Shown here in pieces: positions 31,525 through 40,906 of a DNA stretch of 64,000 bases. The notes below the pieces were generated by a model. It saw only the letters and a list, made by a program, of their open reading frames with translations. It did no database searches and had not been told where the DNA came from. The position numbers and the translations under genes were made by a program. Every line of letters begins with the position of its first letter. The stretch's first letter is position 1. The stretch spans positions 4,640,001 to 4,704,000 of the forward strand of contig OZ250169.1 in the NCBI GenBank assembly GCA_965237955.1, in the 5' to 3' direction. The DNA comes from Candidatus Marinacidobacterales bacterium. GTDB taxonomy: Bacteria; Acidobacteriota; Vicinamibacteria; Marinacidobacterales; SMYC01.

Positions 31525-32916
31525 ATGAAGAAGATCCGCTGTGCCATCTATACGCGAAAGAGTGCGGAAGAGGGTCTCGAACAGGAGTTCAACTCCCTCG
31601 ATGCGCAGCGAGAAGCCTGCGCCGCGTATGTCGCGAGCCAGAAAGCGGAGGGCTGGGTGCTGCTGCCAACCGTCTACGAGGACGCGGGGCTCTCGGGAGG
31701 AACCCTGGAGCGCCCGGGCCTGCAGCGCTTGCTCGCCGACATCGACGCCGGTCTCGTCGACCAGATTGTGGTCTACAAGGTCGACCGACTGACCCGTTCC
31801 CTCTCCGACTTTGCAAAGCTCGTCGAACGGCTCGAGGCGGCCGGCGCGGTTTTCGTCTCGGTGACTCAGTCCTTCAACACCGCGACCAGCATGGGACGAC
31901 TGACGCTGCATATGCTGCTGTCCTTCGCACAATTCGAACGCGAGGTCACGGCCGAGCGGATCCGCGATAAGGACGCTGCCTCCAAGCGCAAGGGACTACG
32001 GATGGGCGGCCGCGTACCGCTAGGCTATGAGAAGGACGGGCGCACGCTGCGCATCAACGAGGCTGAGGCCGAAACGGTCCGGACGCTCTATGCGCTGTAC
32101 CGAAAGCACGAAACGCTCCGGCAGGTGAAGGCCGAGGCGGACCGCCTGAGACTGCGTACCAAGCAACGCTTCACCGCGGATGGAACCCGAACGGGCGGGC
32201 TGCCGTTCCGTCGCGGACACCTCCACTGCCTGCTGACCAATCCTCTCTACGCCGGCCGCATCCGGCACCAGAGGCGTGTCTACGAGGGCCAGCATCCATC
32301 GATCATTGCTCCGGAGCTCTGGGACGCGGTCCAGGCGCAGCTGCAGGCAGGGGCTGCCAAACCAAGGAGACGCACGACGAAGGGCCGTGCAGCCCGTTCC
32401 CCACTGGCAGGCAAGCTCTTCGACGAGACCGGGGACCGGCTGACGCCGAGCCACACCAAAAAGAAAAACGGGCAACGGCTCCGCTACTACGTCTCCCGGC
32501 GCCTCATCCAGCACAGTGGCCAAAAGGACCTCTCCGGCTGGCGACTGCCCGCCCCGATGCTGGAACAGACCGTCGTGCATCTCATCCGACAGCATGTGGA
32601 TGCCACGACCTTCTCGGCCTCGTTGATCCACACTCCGACGATGCAAGAGCTCGCCTCGGTGCGTCGCTTTTTAGACGGGCTGTGTTCCGGCAGTAATAAT
32701 GATAGTGCCTCGGCAGCCCCCCTGCTCCGTCTTATCCGGCGGGTCGACATCAGCCCCGGCTCTGTGTCCATCCTGCTCGACCGCAATGCGTTCGCTGCTT
32801 GCCTCTCTATGGGACCCGAACGCATTCGCGAGGATGCACTCCGCATCCTCGCACCGTTCCGCTTGCGTCGACGCGGCGTCGAGACCAAGCTCGTTCTGGG
32901 CAACCCCACGAACTGA
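31525..32916 (+). CDS. Large serine recombinase, 3'-truncated by an IS3 end
   Basis: 'AIYTRKS', 'VYKVDRLTRS', 'FAQFERE'; the stop codon is supplied by the IS3 terminal TGA at 32914. Confidence 0.9.
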   Translation: MKKIRCAIYTRKSAEEGLEQEFNSLDAQREACAAYVASQKAEGWVLLPTVYEDAGLSGGTLERPGLQRLLADIDAGLVDQIVVYKVDRLTRSLSDFAKLVERLEAAGAVFVSVTQSFNTATSMGRLTLHMLLSFAQFEREVTAERIRDKDAASKRKGLRMGGRVPLGYEKDGRTLRINEAEAETVRTLYALYRKHETLRQVKAEADRLRLRTKQRFTADGTRTGGLPFRRGHLHCLLTNPLYAGRIRHQRRVYEGQHPSIIAPELWDAVQAQLQAGAAKPRRRTTKGRAARSPLAGKLFDETGDRLTPSHTKKKNGQRLRYYVSRRLIQHSGQKDLSGWRLPAPMLEQTVVHLIRQHVDATTFSASLIHTPTMQELASVRRFLDGLCSGSNNDSASAAPLLRLIRRVDISPGSVSILLDRNAFAACLSMGPERIREDALRILAPFRLRRRGVETKLVLGNPTN

Positions 32917-33065
32917 ACCGCCCCGGGTTTTCCGGAGACTGTTTTAGTTGAGTCTCGCCATCTCTAGCGAGCCTTCCTGCGACCGATAGTAGTTCATCTC
33001 GTACTCGACCGGAGAGACATTTCCGATCGGCTCCAAGAGTCGTTGCGTGTTGTACCAATGGACCC
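32914..33065 (-). mobile_element. IS3-family right-end fragment
   Basis: TGAACCGCCCCGGGTTTTCCGGAGAC end plus the orfB C-terminal codons; matches 38569.. and 40907..41058. Confidence 0.85.
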
Positions 33066-33124
33066 CGTCCTGTGCCAAAACTCGGCCCTTTTGAAATAGA
33101 CCATAAATCAGCAGCTTAGTGTCT
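33066..33124 (+). repeat. Terminal repeat copy 2
   Basis: Direct match to the repeat family. Confidence 0.92.
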
Positions 33125-33203
33125 ATGGCGCGCTCCCGTGAACGGCTTGCCGGGTTGCTACGTTTCTACCATAGGGAAGCCGCATGAGTATTTTGACCTT
33201 ACG

Positions 33204-33276
33204 GGCACTCCCACAGGAAACGGGGAGAAACAGATAGGCCGCGCCTACGGAGCACCGTGCCAGCCCTCGACCCTAC
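33204..33276 (+). ncRNA. Group II intron 3'-end fragment (domain VI)
   Basis: Nearly identical to the reverse complement of 36539..36611; ends ...CCCTCGACCCTAC. Confidence 0.75.
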
Positions 33277-33384
33277 CGCGATGGAGCCTGACCAGAAGCC
33301 TGCTGGGCCGGACAGTTCCCCCGCTGATGCCCAGGGTGCCGACTATAATAGTGATGAAGGAGCCTCATCGGTGGGCCTTTTATC

Positions 33385-33460
33385 GGCCCGGTCGCAAACA
33401 CAGACACTAAGCTGCTGATTTATGGTCTATTTCGAAAGGGTCGAGTTTTGGCACAGGACG
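33385..33460 (-). repeat. Terminal repeat copy 3
   Basis: Inverted copy ending GAGTTTTGGCACAGGACG. Confidence 0.9.
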
Positions 33461-33552
33461 GGGTCAGGTCAGCTGAAAGACAGGGTCTGCAAATTGCTGG
33501 CGGAAGAGCCCGGTTTAACGGACCGGAAGACCACCACCGCACTCGGCACATC

Positions 33553-35775
33553 GTGACCGGTGCGGCCAGGCGACAACAGAAAGCGCCAAACCAGGAGGTT
33601 CTGGCTGGCCTCGTCGAGCGGGTGACGTTCCACAACGCCGATAATGGATTCTGCGTTCTGCGCATCAAGGCCCGGGGTCATCGCGATCTTGTGACGGTCG
33701 CCGGGCACGCCGCCATCGTTTCGGCCGGGGAGTGGGTCACGGCAGCGGGGGAATGGGTCAACGATCGCACCCACGGCCAGCAATTCAAGGCGGGCTTCAT
33801 GCGCACCTCGGAGCCATCGTCGATCGACGGCATCGAGAAATACCTTGGCTCCGGCATGATCCACGGCATCGGGCCGGTCTACGCTAGGAAGATGGTCAAG
33901 GCGTTTGGCGAAAAGGTATTCGATATCATCGAGGCCGAGCCGGAACGACTGCGCGAGGTGACCGGCATCGGCCGTGTGCGTGCCAAACGCATCACCGACG
34001 CCTGGGCGGAACAGAAGATCGTTCGCGAGATCATGGTGTTCCTGCACAGCCATGGCATCGGCACGGCGCGCGCGGTGCGGATCTACAAGACCTACGGCGT
34101 GGATGCCGTTCAGGTCATGACCGAGAACCCGTACCGCCTTGCACGAGATATTCGCGGCATCGGGTTCAAGACCGCCGACATGATCGCCATGAAGCTCGGC
34201 ATCGAGAAAACAGCCATGATCCGGGTTCGCGCGGGGATTTCTCATGCGCTCACCGAGGCGATGGACGATGGTCATTGCGGCCTGCCGGCCGAAGAGCTTG
34301 CACCGCTCGCCGTCGAATTATTGGAAGTGTCAAAGGAGTTGGTTCAAGACGCGCTGGACCTCGAACTGGCAGAAGGCACCGTCGTCGCTGCGGCGGTTGC
34401 CGGAACTCCCTGTATATTCCTTGGCGGCCTCTACCGTGCCGAACGGGTGATCGCCGAGAGGGTTCTCCGGATTACGGGCGGCAAGCTTCCTTGGCCGGAT
34501 ATCGATGCCGGCAAGGCGCTACCCTGGGTCGAGGGGAAGACCGGTCTGTCGCTGGCGGCAAGCCAGGCCGAGGCGGTTCGCCTAGCCCTGACCTCCAAGG
34601 CATTGGTCATCACCGGCGGGCCGGGCGTGGGCAAAACGACCATCGTCAACGCCATCCTGCGCATCCTGGCCGCCAAGGGCGTGACCCTGCTGCTCTGCGC
34701 CCCAACCGGCCGCGCCGCCAAGCGGATGACCGAGGCCACCGGGTTCGAGGCGAAAACGATCCACCGGCTACTCGAAGTCGATCCCAAGGGCGGTGGGTTC
34801 AAGCGCAACGGCAACAACCCTCTCGATTGCGGCCTGCTGGTCGTTGACGAGACCTCGATGGTGGACGTCATGCTGATGCAGGCCTTGCTGAAGGCGGTCC
34901 CCGACACTGCCGCGCTACTGATCGTGGGAGATATCGACCAACTGCCCTCGGTCGGTCCGGGCCAGGTACTGGCCAGCATCATCGCCTCCGGTGCCGTCTC
35001 GGTCGTGCGGCTGACCGAGGTTTTCCGTCAGGCCGCGCGAAGCCGGATCGTCACCAGCGCGCACGGGATCAACCGGGGTTCCATTCCCAATCTTTCGAAG
35101 CCCGAGGGCGACAGCGACTTCTACTTCGTGCAGGCGGACAATCCGGAAACCGCGGTGCCGATGATCATCGAATTGGTGAAGACGCGCATCCCAAGGCGCT
35201 TCGGGCTCGATCCGATCCGCGACATCCAGGTACTGTGTCCGATGAACCGCGGCGGCGTCGGCGCCCGCTCGCTCAACATCGAGCTGCAGACCGCCCTCAA
35301 TCCGGCCGGAGAGCGCAAGGTCGAGCGCTTCGGCTGGACCTTCGCGCCCGGCGACAAGGTGATGCAGATCGAAAACGATTATGACAAGGAGGTTTATAAC
35401 GGTGACATCGGCTATATCGACGATGTCGATCCCGAAGTCGGCGAGCTGACCGCGCATGTCGACGGGCGCGCCGTCGCCTATGGCTTCGGCGAGCTTGACA
35501 CGCTGGTTCCGGCATACGCTGCAACCATTCACAAGAGCCAGGGTTCGGAGTATCCCGCCGTCGTCATCCCCGTTCTGACCCAGCACTACGTTATGTTGCA
35601 GCGGAACCTGCTCTACACCGGCGTGACACGCGGCAAACGGCTGGTTGTGCTGGTCGGCCAGAAGAAGGCTGTGGCCATCGCCGTGCGCAATGTCTCGGGA
35701 CGGCGGCGGTGGTCGAAACTGGATGAATGGCTCGGCGATGCGGGAAACCGGCTTGCTCTCTCTTCCGGCAGCTGA
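33553..35775 (+). CDS. recD2: ATP-dependent RecD-like DNA helicase
   Basis: 'VERVTFHN', HhH 'GIG' motifs, Walker A 'GGPGVGKT', 'DETSM', 'HKSQGSE'. Confidence 0.92.
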   Translation: MTGAARRQQKAPNQEVLAGLVERVTFHNADNGFCVLRIKARGHRDLVTVAGHAAIVSAGEWVTAAGEWVNDRTHGQQFKAGFMRTSEPSSIDGIEKYLGSGMIHGIGPVYARKMVKAFGEKVFDIIEAEPERLREVTGIGRVRAKRITDAWAEQKIVREIMVFLHSHGIGTARAVRIYKTYGVDAVQVMTENPYRLARDIRGIGFKTADMIAMKLGIEKTAMIRVRAGISHALTEAMDDGHCGLPAEELAPLAVELLEVSKELVQDALDLELAEGTVVAAAVAGTPCIFLGGLYRAERVIAERVLRITGGKLPWPDIDAGKALPWVEGKTGLSLAASQAEAVRLALTSKALVITGGPGVGKTTIVNAILRILAAKGVTLLLCAPTGRAAKRMTEATGFEAKTIHRLLEVDPKGGGFKRNGNNPLDCGLLVVDETSMVDVMLMQALLKAVPDTAALLIVGDIDQLPSVGPGQVLASIIASGAVSVVRLTEVFRQAARSRIVTSAHGINRGSIPNLSKPEGDSDFYFVQADNPETAVPMIIELVKTRIPRRFGLDPIRDIQVLCPMNRGGVGARSLNIELQTALNPAGERKVERFGWTFAPGDKVMQIENDYDKEVYNGDIGYIDDVDPEVGELTAHVDGRAVAYGFGELDTLVPAYAATIHKSQGSEYPAVVIPVLTQHYVMLQRNLLYTGVTRGKRLVVLVGQKKAVAIAVRNVSGRRRWSKLDEWLGDAGNRLALSSGS

Positions 35776-35977: not shown

Positions 35978-36369
35978 ACATACATTGGGATCCTTTACTG
36001 GCGGTTGCAGTCATAGGTGTGATGGCCTTGCAGGCATCGCATGCGAGAAGTGAGGTTCGAGCGAGAATTGAAGCGCAGATTCTCACCGCAGCGGAGAAGC
36101 TCAACGATGCAGAGTTGGAAGCGGAGAAAAAAGAACTGGTCTCGGATTTAATTCTCGCCGGACTCGTCGGCTGCACTTGGTGGGAGCCCAACGGCCAAGC
36201 GAGGGCGTCGGCGCTGGCAATGCTACTCGAGCAGCTGGCGGAAGGCGATTCGTCTCCGGTGTTCTTAAGAAGCAGGCTCTTTATCCTGCGCTTGTATGAC
36301 GCCCTTCCCGTGAGTCAGGCACGACAATTCTGGCGTGTGCGGAATTTGTTGCGACGGATGAAGTCGTAG
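35978..36369 (+). pseudogene. C-terminal fragment of an unknown helical protein
   Basis: Protein-like open frame with lower GC; its 5' end is cut at the repeat terminus. Confidence 0.45.
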
Positions 36370-36451
36370 TGGTGCTTCTGTCATCAGAGGTAAGGGCAGT
36401 CTGTAAGGCGGACGCCCTGGGGGTATTGTCTGGCTGCCGGTCGACCGACCT

Positions 36452-36506
36452 CGTCCTGTGCCAAAACTCGGCCCTCTTGAAATAGACCATAAATCAGCAG
36501 CTTAGT
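36452..36506 (+). repeat. Terminal repeat copy 5
   Basis: Direct match to the repeat family. Confidence 0.9.
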
Positions 36507-36538
36507 TGTGATCCGCAAAAAAGAAAATCGCGTACCCG

Positions 36539-37440
36539 GTAAGGTCGAGGGCTGGCGCGGTGCTCCGTAGGCGCGGCCTATCTGTTTCTCCCCGTTTCCT
36601 ATGGGAGTGCCTCACTAGCCGCACCGTAAGTCCGTTTCCAGCCCCCGCCACATCGCACGCAGCGTGCGGCTTTCCCGCACTACGCGCTCCTGCACACTTC
36701 CCGCGAAGGGTTATGTGACCTATCGAGCCGGGGCGTCTTTCGGCGAATCTACGAGATATCGAACTCGGTAATCTGTGAACAGTCCGACAGTCGCCTACAT
36801 CCATCGCCTGCTCCATCGCTTCCAGCCGAAACCTTGGCGCAAGAAGCGCCAAGACTTCTCGGCCTTCGCCTTGACGTATATCCTTCATCTCAGCTCCTGC
36901 AGAGTGATGGGTGATTTTGTCATCTCACCCCTGCCTCGCTTGTTGACGAAGGAGTTGTGTGCAGCAGGGCCCCTTTGCTCCACGGGCGTTGCCCCGTTTC
37001 AACGCTACTACGGACCCAGCCGCCACCGTCTCGTCTTCAACCGTTTTCCCGGGGCCTCCGGTTATGCGGTCTACCTTGCTCCGTCGATTTCTCGACGGGA
37101 CGAGGACGGCTTCTCCAGTTGCTTGGCATGTCCTTGTCACCGTGCTGTCCCTACCACCCCGCCAGAGGGATGTGCCTCATCAGATAGTCTGGCGACACAT
37201 CCCTGTTGCCTTCGTCCGACACGAGAAAACTCGGCCTCTGGGGTCTATTTTTTTGTCGGGGCCACCTATGGGTTCACTTGTGTTACGGCCCGGTGACTCG
37301 CTCACCATCCTCAAGATGGCTTTGTCAGTCAGCTTCATCCGTCTCGTTTCCTCCACGAACGTGACTCAAGCTACGGGGCGCTAACTTTTTCCCCGGTGGG
37401 ACTCTCTCCCACTGAACATGCCAGCCTTCGCTGGACGCAC
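36539..37440 (-). ncRNA. Group II intron, RT ORF internally deleted (902 nt)
   Basis: 5' GTGCG at 37440; domain V at 36655..36688; domain VI ending GACCTTAC at 36539; ORF relic 'MTKSPITLQELR*RIYVKAKAEKSWRF/LRQGFGWKRWS'. Confidence 0.88.
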
Positions 37441-37890
37441 TCGTGTCCAAAAATACAAACGAACTCTAAGACCCGCGCGCCGGGACGTCGCCGAGTTCAT
37501 CTATCATTATCATGGAGAGTGCAACCATCAAGGGCTTGGCAACACGTTTGTATTTTGGACACGACGGCATCGCTTATGAACCACTCTCATCGCAGCCTCC
37601 TTCACGTCGCACCGGCGTGGAGCCCACGAACTTGTAATCTAATAGACGCGCTCAACAATCCAAGCTGGATAGAAAACGCAATTTGGGGTACGCGCAGGAC
37701 TCCCAGCCAAACTTGACAACGGGCTCAGTCGCACCAACGTTGAGCCGACCTCTGAGCCGGTGCCATCTACAGAGACTACCGCGTTTCATTCATACGGGGT
37801 GGCCGTCAGGCCGTGAAAAACTTGACAGTACCATCCGAAACGCTCCGGCTGATGCAAGTCTTGAGTTCGTTCGTGTTTTTTGACACGACG
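37441..37890. mobile_element. Degenerate miniature rve-integrase element with inverted ends
   Basis: 37441..37472 is inverted relative to 37858..37888, with an extra end at 37545..37566; internal relic 'HYHGECNHQGLGN'. Confidence 0.6.
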
Positions 37891-37938
37891 CGCTCACTCA
37901 AACGATTGTGCGGCCGGCAGCGAAAATGTAGCGGGCGC

Positions 37939-38199
37939 CTAAGGGAGTGGACCGATCCGACCGGGAGCCTCGAAACTTCGGGCTCGCTTCCAAGCTCTCA
38001 TGAGCTCATCCTGATGTTGAGAGGCCCACTCCACAACGAGACCGGTCGCGCGAGCGGGAAGGCGGCCTGCCGTCAGCGATAGCGTCTCGATGGCAAAGAG
38101 AGCCTCGTCGGACCCGTAATACGCATGGAAATGAGGAGGGGCATGATCGTTGAAGAACATCCGCACGACGATGCCATAAAACCGGCTTAGCTCAGGCAT
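37939..38199 (-). CDS. DUF4160-type protein (putative TA component)
   Basis: 'MPELSRFYGIVVRMFFNDHAPPHFHAYY...EWA'. Confidence 0.85.
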   Translation of the reverse strand: MPELSRFYGIVVRMFFNDHAPPHFHAYYGSDEALFAIETLSLTAGRLPARATGLVVEWASQHQDELMRAWKRARSFEAPGRIGPLP

Positions 38200-38476
38200 C
38201 TACATCGGCGACCGATATTCGAGGAAAAACCTCCTCCGGCTTCTTTCCGGTTAGCTCGAGGTAGATGCTGTCCGGGCATAGCTCGATGTCTTTGTTCCAC
38301 GCGATGCTTCCGTGGGGGCTCACGTGGACGGTCTCGAAGAATGCAGGATCACTCCACGACGAGAATATGCCCTTGCCGACGAAGGGAATGAGGTCCACCT
38401 CGCCTTCGGTGCCATCCTCGTAACGCACCCAAATCTTGTACTTGGGCAACGCTCGAACTTCGCGAACCTTCAACAT
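38192..38476 (-). CDS. DUF2442-type protein (putative TA component)
   Basis: 'YEDGTEGEVDL...F...IAW..DIELCPDSIY'. Confidence 0.82.
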   Translation of the reverse strand: MLKVREVRALPKYKIWVRYEDGTEGEVDLIPFVGKGIFSSWSDPAFFETVHVSPHGSIAWNKDIELCPDSIYLELTGKKPEEVFPRISVADVDA

Positions 38477-38497
38477 GCCCACATTGTAGCACCTCCG

Positions 38498-38559
38498 GCT
38501 GTGCCTTCTATATATTCATCCACGCGCACCGAACTTGATCAGTCTCCGGTCTGCCGGCA
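38498..38559 (+). repeat. Second copy of the element end seen at 30415..30476
   Basis: GCTGTGCCTTCTATATATTCATCC...CTGCCGGCA. Confidence 0.8.
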
Positions 38560-38568
38560 GAAACAGAC

Positions 38569-39072
38569 TGAACCGCCCTGGGTTTTCCGGAGACTGTTTT
38601 AGTTGAGTCTCGCCATCTCTAGCGAGCCTTCCTGCGACCGATAGTAGTTCATCTCGTACTCGACCGGGGGGACATTTCCGATCGGCTCCAAGAGTCGTTG
38701 CGTGTTGTACCAATGCACCCACTCGAGGGTGGCGAACTCGACGTCCTCAGGACCACGCCAGGGCCCGCGTCGACGGATCACCTCGGTCTTGTAGAGGCCG
38801 ATGATGGATTCAGCCAAAGCGTTATCGTAAGAGTCGCCTCGGCTGCCGACGGACGGCTCAACACCCGCCTCGGCGAGCCGCTCGGTGTAACGGGTCGAGA
38901 CGTACTGCACGCCGCGATCGCTGTGATGCACCAATGGATCTTCTGGGTTTAGTCGGCGCTCGTGCAGCGCCTGCTCCAACGCATCGAGAGCGATGCCGGC
39001 AGTCAACGATGTCGTCGCTCGCCAACCGACGATGAGTCGAGCGAAGATGTCGATGACGAAGGCGACATACAC
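38569..39072 (-). mobile_element. IS3-family transposase 3' fragment with right end
   Basis: 'VYVAFVID', 'HHSDRGVQY', 'DSYDNALAE', 'YKTE'. Confidence 0.88.
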
Positions 39073-39440: not shown

Positions 39441-40906
39441 CGTCCTGTGCCAAAACTCGGCCCTTTTGAAATAGACCATAAATCAGCAACTTAGTGTCTG
39501 TGTTTGAAATAGACCATAAATCAGCAACTTAGTGTCTGTGTTTGCGACTGGACCAAGGGCCGTGGGCTTTACAATCGTCTTGGGCGGGCGGGTCGTCACC
39601 ATGCAGATGACCACCTAGTCGAGAGCGAATATCGAAGCGTGTTCCTGAAGCGGTTTCCACGCTACGCCGGTCGAGCCCGCCGAGGGGCTACCGTCGCCGG
39701 CGACCATCTACGCGGCACGGCAGTAGTAGTTGAGAATGCCCCCAAGTCGCTCTCGCGACACGATGGGGCCAGCGTCATTCGCGCTTGCCGGCAGAGGTGT
39801 GAGGAGCTCGTTGCCGAGACCTTGGTGGTTCCGTTCTGTGTGATAGTGCACTACGTATTCGGTTACTGCTGTGCGCAGGTGTCGCTCACTGAGAGGTACG
39901 AAGCGGTCGAGACACTCTCGACGTATGGAGAGAACGAATCTTTCCGCATATGCGTTCAGATTCGGACTATTAGCGGGAAGGCGAAGGGGCTTCACGCCTG
40001 AATCTCTCAACAGCCCACGTACCGCCTCGGTGAATAGCGGGTCTCGGTCGTGGATGAGGTATCGCTTGCCAAGGAGGAAACCATCCCACATGTCAGTGAG
40101 GTTTCTTGCCACCTGCTTCATCCACTCCCCGTTGGGGTCCGACGTTATCCCACCGATGCACACGCAGCGAGTGGCGATATCGATGACAAACAGGACATGG
40201 TAGCGGACGAGCCCGAACGGGTTCACAACCTCGACGGTGAACAGGTCTGTCGCAGCGATGGCACCCCAATGAGCCTTGATGAAGGTGCTCCACGACATGC
40301 TCCTGCCCCGCTCCGGCGCAGGAGCAATACCGTGCTCGGCGAGGATCCTCTTGATAGTGTTGCGTCCGAGTTCATGTCCTAGGTTCTTGAGTGCGCCTCG
40401 CAGGCGCGTATATCCCCACGTCGGGTTCTCCCGCGCCACGCGCACAATGAGCTCACGGATGTCCTTCGCCGTCGGAGGTCGGCCTGGACTCCGGTTCTTG
40501 CTGCCATCGTACTTGGCTGCGATGAGGTGGCGGTACCAGCGCAGAAGCGTAGCGGGTGTGGCAACGGACGCAATCTGGGCCAGCGCCTCGCGGCCCAAAG
40601 CCTGGGCCTTGACCGCGAGCCTGCGCCGGTCGTCGTCCGAGAGACTGAGACGCTTGCCCCGAAGCCCGGCTCGGAGCACACGGTTCTCCTCTTGCAGGTA
40701 GTCGATCACATCCTGCTGCTGGCGGTTGACCCAGCCAGCTAGAACGAGCAGTAGGAATTGCACGTGGTACGTCATCATGGATCTGAAGATAACACCCTCG
40801 GGCCAGACGATTGTAAAGCCTACGGCCCTTGGCCCCGGCGCAAACACAGACACTAAGCTGCTGATTTATGGCCTATTTCAAAAGGGCCGAGTTTTGGCAC
40901 AGGACG
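39441..40906 (-). mobile_element. Complete ~1.47-kb rve-integrase IS-like element with ~100-bp terminal inverted repeats (copies 6 and 7)
   Basis: Repeat at 39441..39580 (with an internal tandem duplication) is inverted to the repeat ending at 40906; single integrase ORF inside. Confidence 0.8.
39708..40778 (-). CDS. Integrase core (rve, DDE) transposase
   Basis: 'ENPTWGY', 'ATDLFTVE', 'LIHDRDPLF', 'NAYAERFV', 'ERNHQG'. Confidence 0.9.

Follow-up and report, generated by a model that had tools for sequence, protein, structure and literature searches.

A spliced group II intron lariat acts together with a reverse transcriptase (RT): the RNA reverse-splices into a DNA site that pairs with its exon-binding sequences (EBS) and is then copied into DNA. 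Group II introns without an open reading frame (ORF) are a known form. An earlier note on the DNA studied here had named RmInt1 (ISRm2011-2) as the precedent for an intron inside an insertion sequence (IS). The closest described system is instead RmInt2 of Sinorhizobium meliloti GR4, which homes into the inverted repeats of ISRm17, as reported in the accessible portions of two papers (PMC4615759; PMC5894124). TeI3 introns that lack an ORF are mobilised by the RTs of related introns, according to the available part of PMC2882425, and excerpts of two other papers present introns hiding in mobile elements as a general pattern (PMC7306698; PMC12584367). For the g2 introns, the accessible part of PMC3552965 gives as hosts in Table S2 transposase genes, a hypothetical gene and non-coding DNA, and leaves IS-end targeting unstated.

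Here we analyzed a 64,000-nt stretch of a Candidatus Marinacidobacterales contig (the window). Probably, an RT-deleted class F/g2 intron retrohomed in this region with an RT from a full-length relative, and its three guides pair with the last 13 bases before the junction, and one base beyond it, at the end of an rve-type IS.

The group II intron (36539..37440, minus strand, 902 nt) has no intact RT ORF. It starts with GTGCG at 37440 and finishes with CTTAC at 36539; on the minus strand the 5′ exon ends in TTTTTGGACACGA, and CGG follows the intron. These boundaries were set by three full copies in the host genome (G000) and by a vacant/occupied allele pair, and GTGCG...TAC satisfies the IIB-type rule (5′ GUGYG, 3′ AY). 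Domain I was detected by the Rfam model group-II-D1D4-4 (37414..37278, minus strand; 120 bits, cut-off 49). A putative domain V, followed by a putative long domain VI (36539..36689, minus strand), was placed from a weak match to Rfam Intron_gpII (36689..36601, minus strand; 28.1 bits, E 0.005, below the gathering score of 40) and from the local fold of the 3′ region, in which the domain V hairpin forms and domain VI is of unusual length. Compared by blastn with a full-length relative of 2010 nt (L048), intron positions 1–597 align with 1–595, and 601–809 with 1706–1914, which places an RT ORF deletion of ∼1.11 kb in the focal intron. The remnant of the RT/maturase ORF (36690..36923, minus strand) consists of ∼27 N-terminal codons, with an internal TGA, joined to C-terminal codons near 36843. 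The early TGA is found in all three full copies of the host genome; with the deletion, it leaves the focal copy without an intact intron-encoded RT.

RNA contigs from 4 of 22 listed runs, which cannot show absence, contained pieces of the intron and no exon-exon joint, and no joint skipping exactly 36539..37440 was found in four runs of unrecorded kind. A promoter scan over 36300..38600 found none. The surroundings contain a DUF4160 and DUF2442 gene pair (37939..38482, minus strand), which we take to resemble a small toxin-antitoxin module, and a serine recombinase (Resolvase and Recombinase domains) with a RecD2-like helicase amid IS debris (31525..35775), likely the remains of an integrated mobile element.

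The invaded DNA is a 128-bp MITE, whose body (37441..37566, plus strand) was recognised by its match to a family-A element (in L008). It is an internal-deletion derivative of a family-A IS, made up of the left end, the 3′ part of the transposase gene and the right end of that element, and 13 near-full copies lie elsewhere in the host genome. Its left inverted repeat is invaded and its right one vacant, and the terminal CG of the left end (36537..36538, minus strand) has been moved 902 nt away by the intron. When flanks were compared with uninterrupted DNA, 63 of 79 junction comparisons had no base common to the tip, which defines the family-A tip as ...ACG and puts the intron two bases inward of it. 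The earlier note had located the intron at TTTTTGGACACGA^CGG: the junction is exact, but the third base of CGG belongs, by the same 63/79 comparisons, to the target DNA. With insertion at GACACGA^CG the intron points outward, and beyond its 3′ end nothing of the element remains but the terminal CG, followed by host DNA.

Both unoccupied end motifs reported earlier, which with the intron make up the span of that note (36539..37890), are present on the plus strand. ATTTTGGACACGACGG (37552..37567, the end proper reaching 37566) is the right end of the same MITE, judged by sequence, and TTTTTGACACGACG (37877..37890) is another family-A end, with IBS1, IBS2 and IBS3 all intact. The end-motif pattern matched twice in the window, whereas 100 shuffles gave 0.01 matches on average. 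Across the host genome, a pattern search found rve-type ends of five families (155 A, 454 B, 28 C, 108 D and 133 E); in families D and E, flanks compared with uninterrupted copies gave ...ACA tips. In the window, rve-type IS sequence was also noted at 36447..36463, 39445..39461 and 39442..40905.

The family-B transposase in the window has an rve_3 domain and falls below the NCBIfam cut-offs for IS481 and IS3 (101 bits against NF033577, IS481; cut-off 224). The IS481 profile was scored on this protein, to which the family-A transposase is 55% identical. IS481-type TGT...ACA termini are present in families D and E and not in family A, which ends in ACG. No target site duplication (mostly 6 bp in IS481) was visible in paired ends of the host genome, and a search of that genome found no empty site uniting both flanks of one element. 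Families A, B and C match no NCBIfam IS family above cut-off, have CGT...ACG termini with flanks G/C-biased on both sides, and are represented by orphan ends and MITEs in their hundreds. Adjacent deletions or inversions may be their main way of moving.

Three guides face this target. EBS1, UCGUGU(C) (37218..37224, minus strand), pairs at 7/7 positions with IBS1, (G)ACACGA (−7..−1); EBS2, AAAAA (37249..37253, minus strand), pairs at 5/5 with the T-tract of the IS end (−13..−9); and the predicted EBS3, a G (37154..37154, minus strand), pairs with the C at +1. The hairpin at 37216..37234 proposed in the earlier note has the sequence given there, and its UCGUGUC (37224..37218) pairs with GACACGA as claimed. 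The homologue alignment upheld this EBS1 and replaced the CCGA/UCGG stem, which would bury the final two EBS1 bases: the loop is closed by GUUU/GGAC in the focal intron and by GCCC/GGGC in most relatives. The stem was chosen by homology because the energies of the two local folds are about equal (−4.0 vs. −3.9 kcal/mol).

To these relatives belong 106 non-redundant 5′ ends from genome and metagenome contigs and plasmids, the RT matches kept being 80 out of 586 from genomes and 80 out of 598 from metagenomes; EBS1 was readable in 101. In these 101 copies, which retain a few rows with false or shifted boundary calls, EBS1 paired with a mean of 5.58 of the last six exon bases, and with at least five in 93. 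Shuffling gave 3.02 ± 0.11 (maximum 3.45, 2000 shuffles). EBS2 paired at a mean of 4.06 of 5 positions (100 copies retrieved), compared with 2.29 when shuffled. At EBS3, 53 of the 75 copies with a 3′ flank have G opposite a +1 C, and another 13 have A opposite T. Owing to the kinship of rows, shuffle controls here and below overstate significance; the pairing effect is very large nonetheless. Across ∼100 homologues, each of the three guides is complementary to the insertion site and changes along with the target.

The RT of the full-length relatives clusters with that of B.th.I3 (g2; 48% identity, 99% SH-aLRT) in a class tree with one reference each of g1, g2 and g3, and with no g4, basal F or class D sequence. 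In one such relative (L014) the RT has the RVT_1 and GIIM domains only, with no D/En domain. RT5 of the full-length relatives carries FADD, which alone is not diagnostic: the g3 reference has YADD, but other En-less RTs tested have FADD. By these sequence features, the focal intron descends from class F/g2 and has lost its RT gene to deletion.

Among the matches retrieved, 16 RTs form a clade, with 99% local support in a FastTree tree that left out the long-branch rows L084 and L124, and 93% SH-aLRT in a quick tree. By a label given from flank sequence, and independently supported in 10 of the 17 labelled RT-tree rows, 14 of the 16 introns lie in rve-type ends, in the same register and with different EBS1s. 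The exceptions are L190, which interrupts an RT ORF, and L193, whose site is unrelated. L014, L028, L060, L061, L106, L142, L160 and L213 each have a neighbouring rve ORF or a partner repeat, and the host genomes of L060, L072, L077 and L106 hold vacant copies of the cognate end, some beside rve ORFs. The L184 end, the weakest case of label support, resembles a family-C end of the G000 genome, and no convincing vacant end copy was found in the genome of L059. Site labels change 4 times on the RT tree, compared with 15.7 when shuffled.

When the EBS were masked, the RNA tree placed the focal intron inside a 24-row group (94%), of which 21 rows are end-targeting. This group is joined by L106, L206 and L183, whose rve-type end sites fall outside the RT clade. 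L106 and L206 have their RNA with the end-targeting introns and their RT with another subclade, hinting at an RT/ribozyme swap. Eighteen distinct EBS1 hexamers were counted in 22 IS-end rows; the first base is U and EBS3 is G in every one.

Outside the RT clade, the flanks place most rows within the domain V of another group II intron and a few in coding sequences. Judged by its sites, the class F/g2 lineage as a whole is not end-specific. The homing to transposon ends ascribed to the lineage in the earlier note is supported for the close subfamily (19/21) and the RT clade (14/16), but not for class F/g2 overall. Unrelated flanks in homologues had been named there as evidence against the idea. 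That outcome did not arise: in subfamily and clade, the 5′ exons are mostly rve-type ends with co-varying EBS1. At L036, L038, L062–L073 and many of L079–L203 the insertion is at one position of the domain V 3′ strand, approximately CACGTCCGGTT^CTG, and EBS1 matches it. In such a niche of one intron within another, the host ribozyme would be broken if the guest were not spliced out. A separate subclade (L105, L108, L109, L133, L194 and L197) has EBS1 ACUUUU(C) and sites like GAGAAGT^CGG, some palindromic.

The fixed register could instead reflect active recognition of the end, with the RT or RNP engaging a frayed, bent or transposase-bound end and the EBS only picking the family. Wherever the tip is defined, be it ACA or ACG, insertion lies two bases from it, and this holds across introns of several phyla that are ∼70–76% identical in RT. 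Their RT is without an endonuclease domain, and an endonuclease-less RT needs exposed DNA. We nevertheless consider active recognition quite unlikely, given that base pairing and a shared A^C(A/G) layout account for the register alone, that L190 shifted to an RT ORF site with A^C kept, and that the class D precedent, in the available text, homes to cloned inverted-repeat targets (PMC4615759). Under the preferred reading, in which guide pairing chooses the site, the ends would have a common layout (T-rich tract, variable core, A^C(A/G)), and this shared layout would explain the fixed register. The first-base U of EBS1, the G of EBS3 and the A-rich EBS2 would be kept, and alteration of the middle of EBS1 would open a new IS family with the register unchanged. 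The hundreds of intergenic ends could provide a harmless and renewable target pool, with one site per strand per element. Once an insertion had parted the tip from its repeat, that end would be inactive for transposition.

The same deletion derivative, at 98–99% identity, is present in five genomes of two families. A pattern search read 21 distinct 5′ contexts in its subfamily, 19 of them ends of family A; some copies occupy the left end of an element and others the right end. The 5′ context of L013 is a related end, GGACAGTA, and its EBS1 is altered to match (UGCUGU). L010 was rejected as an exception: a later IS, presumably IS256-like, inserted at its junction and produced an 8-bp duplication, and the original exon is found on the far side of this IS. 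In the subfamily, CG opens every one of the 33 distinct 3′ flanks, and an exact vacant allele was obtained for 1 of the 33, occupied in G033 and empty in the host genome. The host genome contains three full introns, ∼36 3′ fragments and ∼150 vacant perfect or one-variant family-A targets, and so few full copies qualify the suggestion of the earlier note that the element is possibly disabled; 23 of its 26 3′ flank clusters start with CG, and the following two bases show the family-A target bias. EBS1 reads UCCUGU in three copies, one in GACAGGA (host genome) and two, mismatched, in GACACGA. The case for a compensatory EBS1 change within the subfamily is weak, and the single compensatory host-genome copy (1/3) was not taken as proof.

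In a phylum sample, domain I matched in 4 of 400 other genomes, at five loci, of which the boundary pattern read two (L239, with no IS end, and L242, end-like and truncated) and missed three. The replication-strand test was uninformative, with weak GC skew and 13/31 intron ends vs. 53/148 vacant ends. Intron fragments of the host genome are ∼36 to 1 in favour of 3′ over 5′, and many start directly at an intact IS tip, which suggests either IS-mediated deletion of the 5′ part with a blocked end or incomplete reverse transcription. A distant related intron (G000:C1:6212203..6210729, minus strand; 74% in domain I) occupies a non-IS site, is split by ∼1 kb of foreign DNA and is truncated. Elsewhere in the host genome, a group II intron of a different class interrupts an rve transposase ORF (L001, G000:559–561 kb), and at L003 (G000:372–376 kb) a family-C end adjoins intron GTGCG, the 3′ exon being the tail of an rve ORF.

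None of the five RVT_1 matches in the host genome is a cognate RT (best 34–35% identity). RT fragments 78–88% identical are present in G018; viral contigs gave distant RTs only (30–37% identity), and no autonomous intron with EBS1 UCGUGU was found among the matches retrieved. The missing cognate RT fits the idea that most copies are passengers, one old insertion having spread by IS-driven duplication, recombination and horizontal transfer. So do the flanks common to several copies of different genomes, the two host-genome copies with the same 3′ flank and different 5′ exons, and a 73-nt 3′ fragment of the focal intron type, followed by CG (33204..33276, plus strand), that was amplified within a 393-bp family-B MITE (33067..33459). 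Yet the 33 distinct 3′ flanks, the 21 distinct 5′ contexts including left and right ends, and the precise vacant allele run against it, and EBS covariation across the clade is not explained by cargo transfer, which makes a mainly passive spread quite unlikely. In another view, the transposase accepts the intron 3′ end, with CG added, in place of a true IS end; intron and IS would then travel as a composite, and the flanks would vary by DNA transposition. This view would also predict the target bias in the post-CG bases, but is hardly credible, since truncated fragments with the same 5′ breakpoint mostly have the same 3′ flank, the T-tract of the repeat is absent from the intron 3′ end, and the vacant allele shows the flank to be older than the intron.

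For insertion by retrohoming, the RT would have been supplied in trans by a full-length relative, as for TeI3 in the accessible part of PMC2882425. As its host genome yielded no cognate RT, the focal copy probably no longer moves.

A bolder reading, which we regard as unlikely, is that (i) a cross-phylum intron clade has specialised on rve-type IS tips, with guides reprogrammed per family and insertion always just before the terminal CA/CG, where the transposase has to cut; (ii) insertion falls there because the RNP reads the structure of the end or a transposase-engaged end; (iii) an end is lost with every insertion, and the clade acts as a natural, programmable suppressor of an IS superfamily; and (iv) the mini-intron spreads between host families on a borrowed RT. 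The homologues offer a natural guide/target series, in which a retroelement would follow diversifying DNA-transposon ends with the register constant. Two questions become testable with it: whether tip insertion blocks transposition, and whether an endonuclease-less intron is drawn to ends beyond base pairing.

The target families resemble DDE elements related to IS481, IS3 and IS1202 in their rve_3 core, HTH domains and terminal inverted repeats, and families D and E share the TGT...ACA ends, as far as the available text describes these elements (PMC10045372). Families A, B and C differ from them, ending in CGT...ACG, with no target duplication found. The intron lineage, in its full-length members, resembles the class F/g2 intron B.th.I3, which in the accessible portion of PMC3552965 has FADD, an RT and maturase without endonuclease, a length of ∼2.0 kb and a 435-aa protein. 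The focal derivative is also like the ORF-less TeI3 of Thermosynechococcus elongatus, which in the accessible part of PMC2882425 has a single ORF deletion common to its copies, remnants of both the N- and the C-terminal coding parts, many sites, good EBS/IBS pairing, EBS divergence and insertion into other mobile elements. TeI3 is described there in the ORFs of introns, in an IS200-family element and at intergenic sites, and its driver RTs are in the same genome, whereas the genome of the focal intron yielded no cognate RT. Unlike TeI3 as described there, the focal derivative is common to two host families.

The basic habit is already published, and the gain is in scope and geometry, with no new principle. 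Our search of the freely accessible literature found no g2 clade retargeted across rve-type tips at fixed register; judged from the sequences, one lineage repeatedly retargeted over many IS-end families at fixed register is the part not found published. Like the focal intron, RmInt2, in the portions of its reports available to us, is endonuclease-less and uses both inverted repeats as EBS-specified targets, with two sites per element on opposite strands. RmInt2, however, is a class D intron; a single intron and a single IS are involved, and experiments have demonstrated its mobility. In contrast, the system described here is of class F/g2, its RT grouping with g2, extends over 18 EBS1 variants and many rve-type end families, includes a non-autonomous derivative, and inserts, at the IS ends it occupies, always two bases from the tip.
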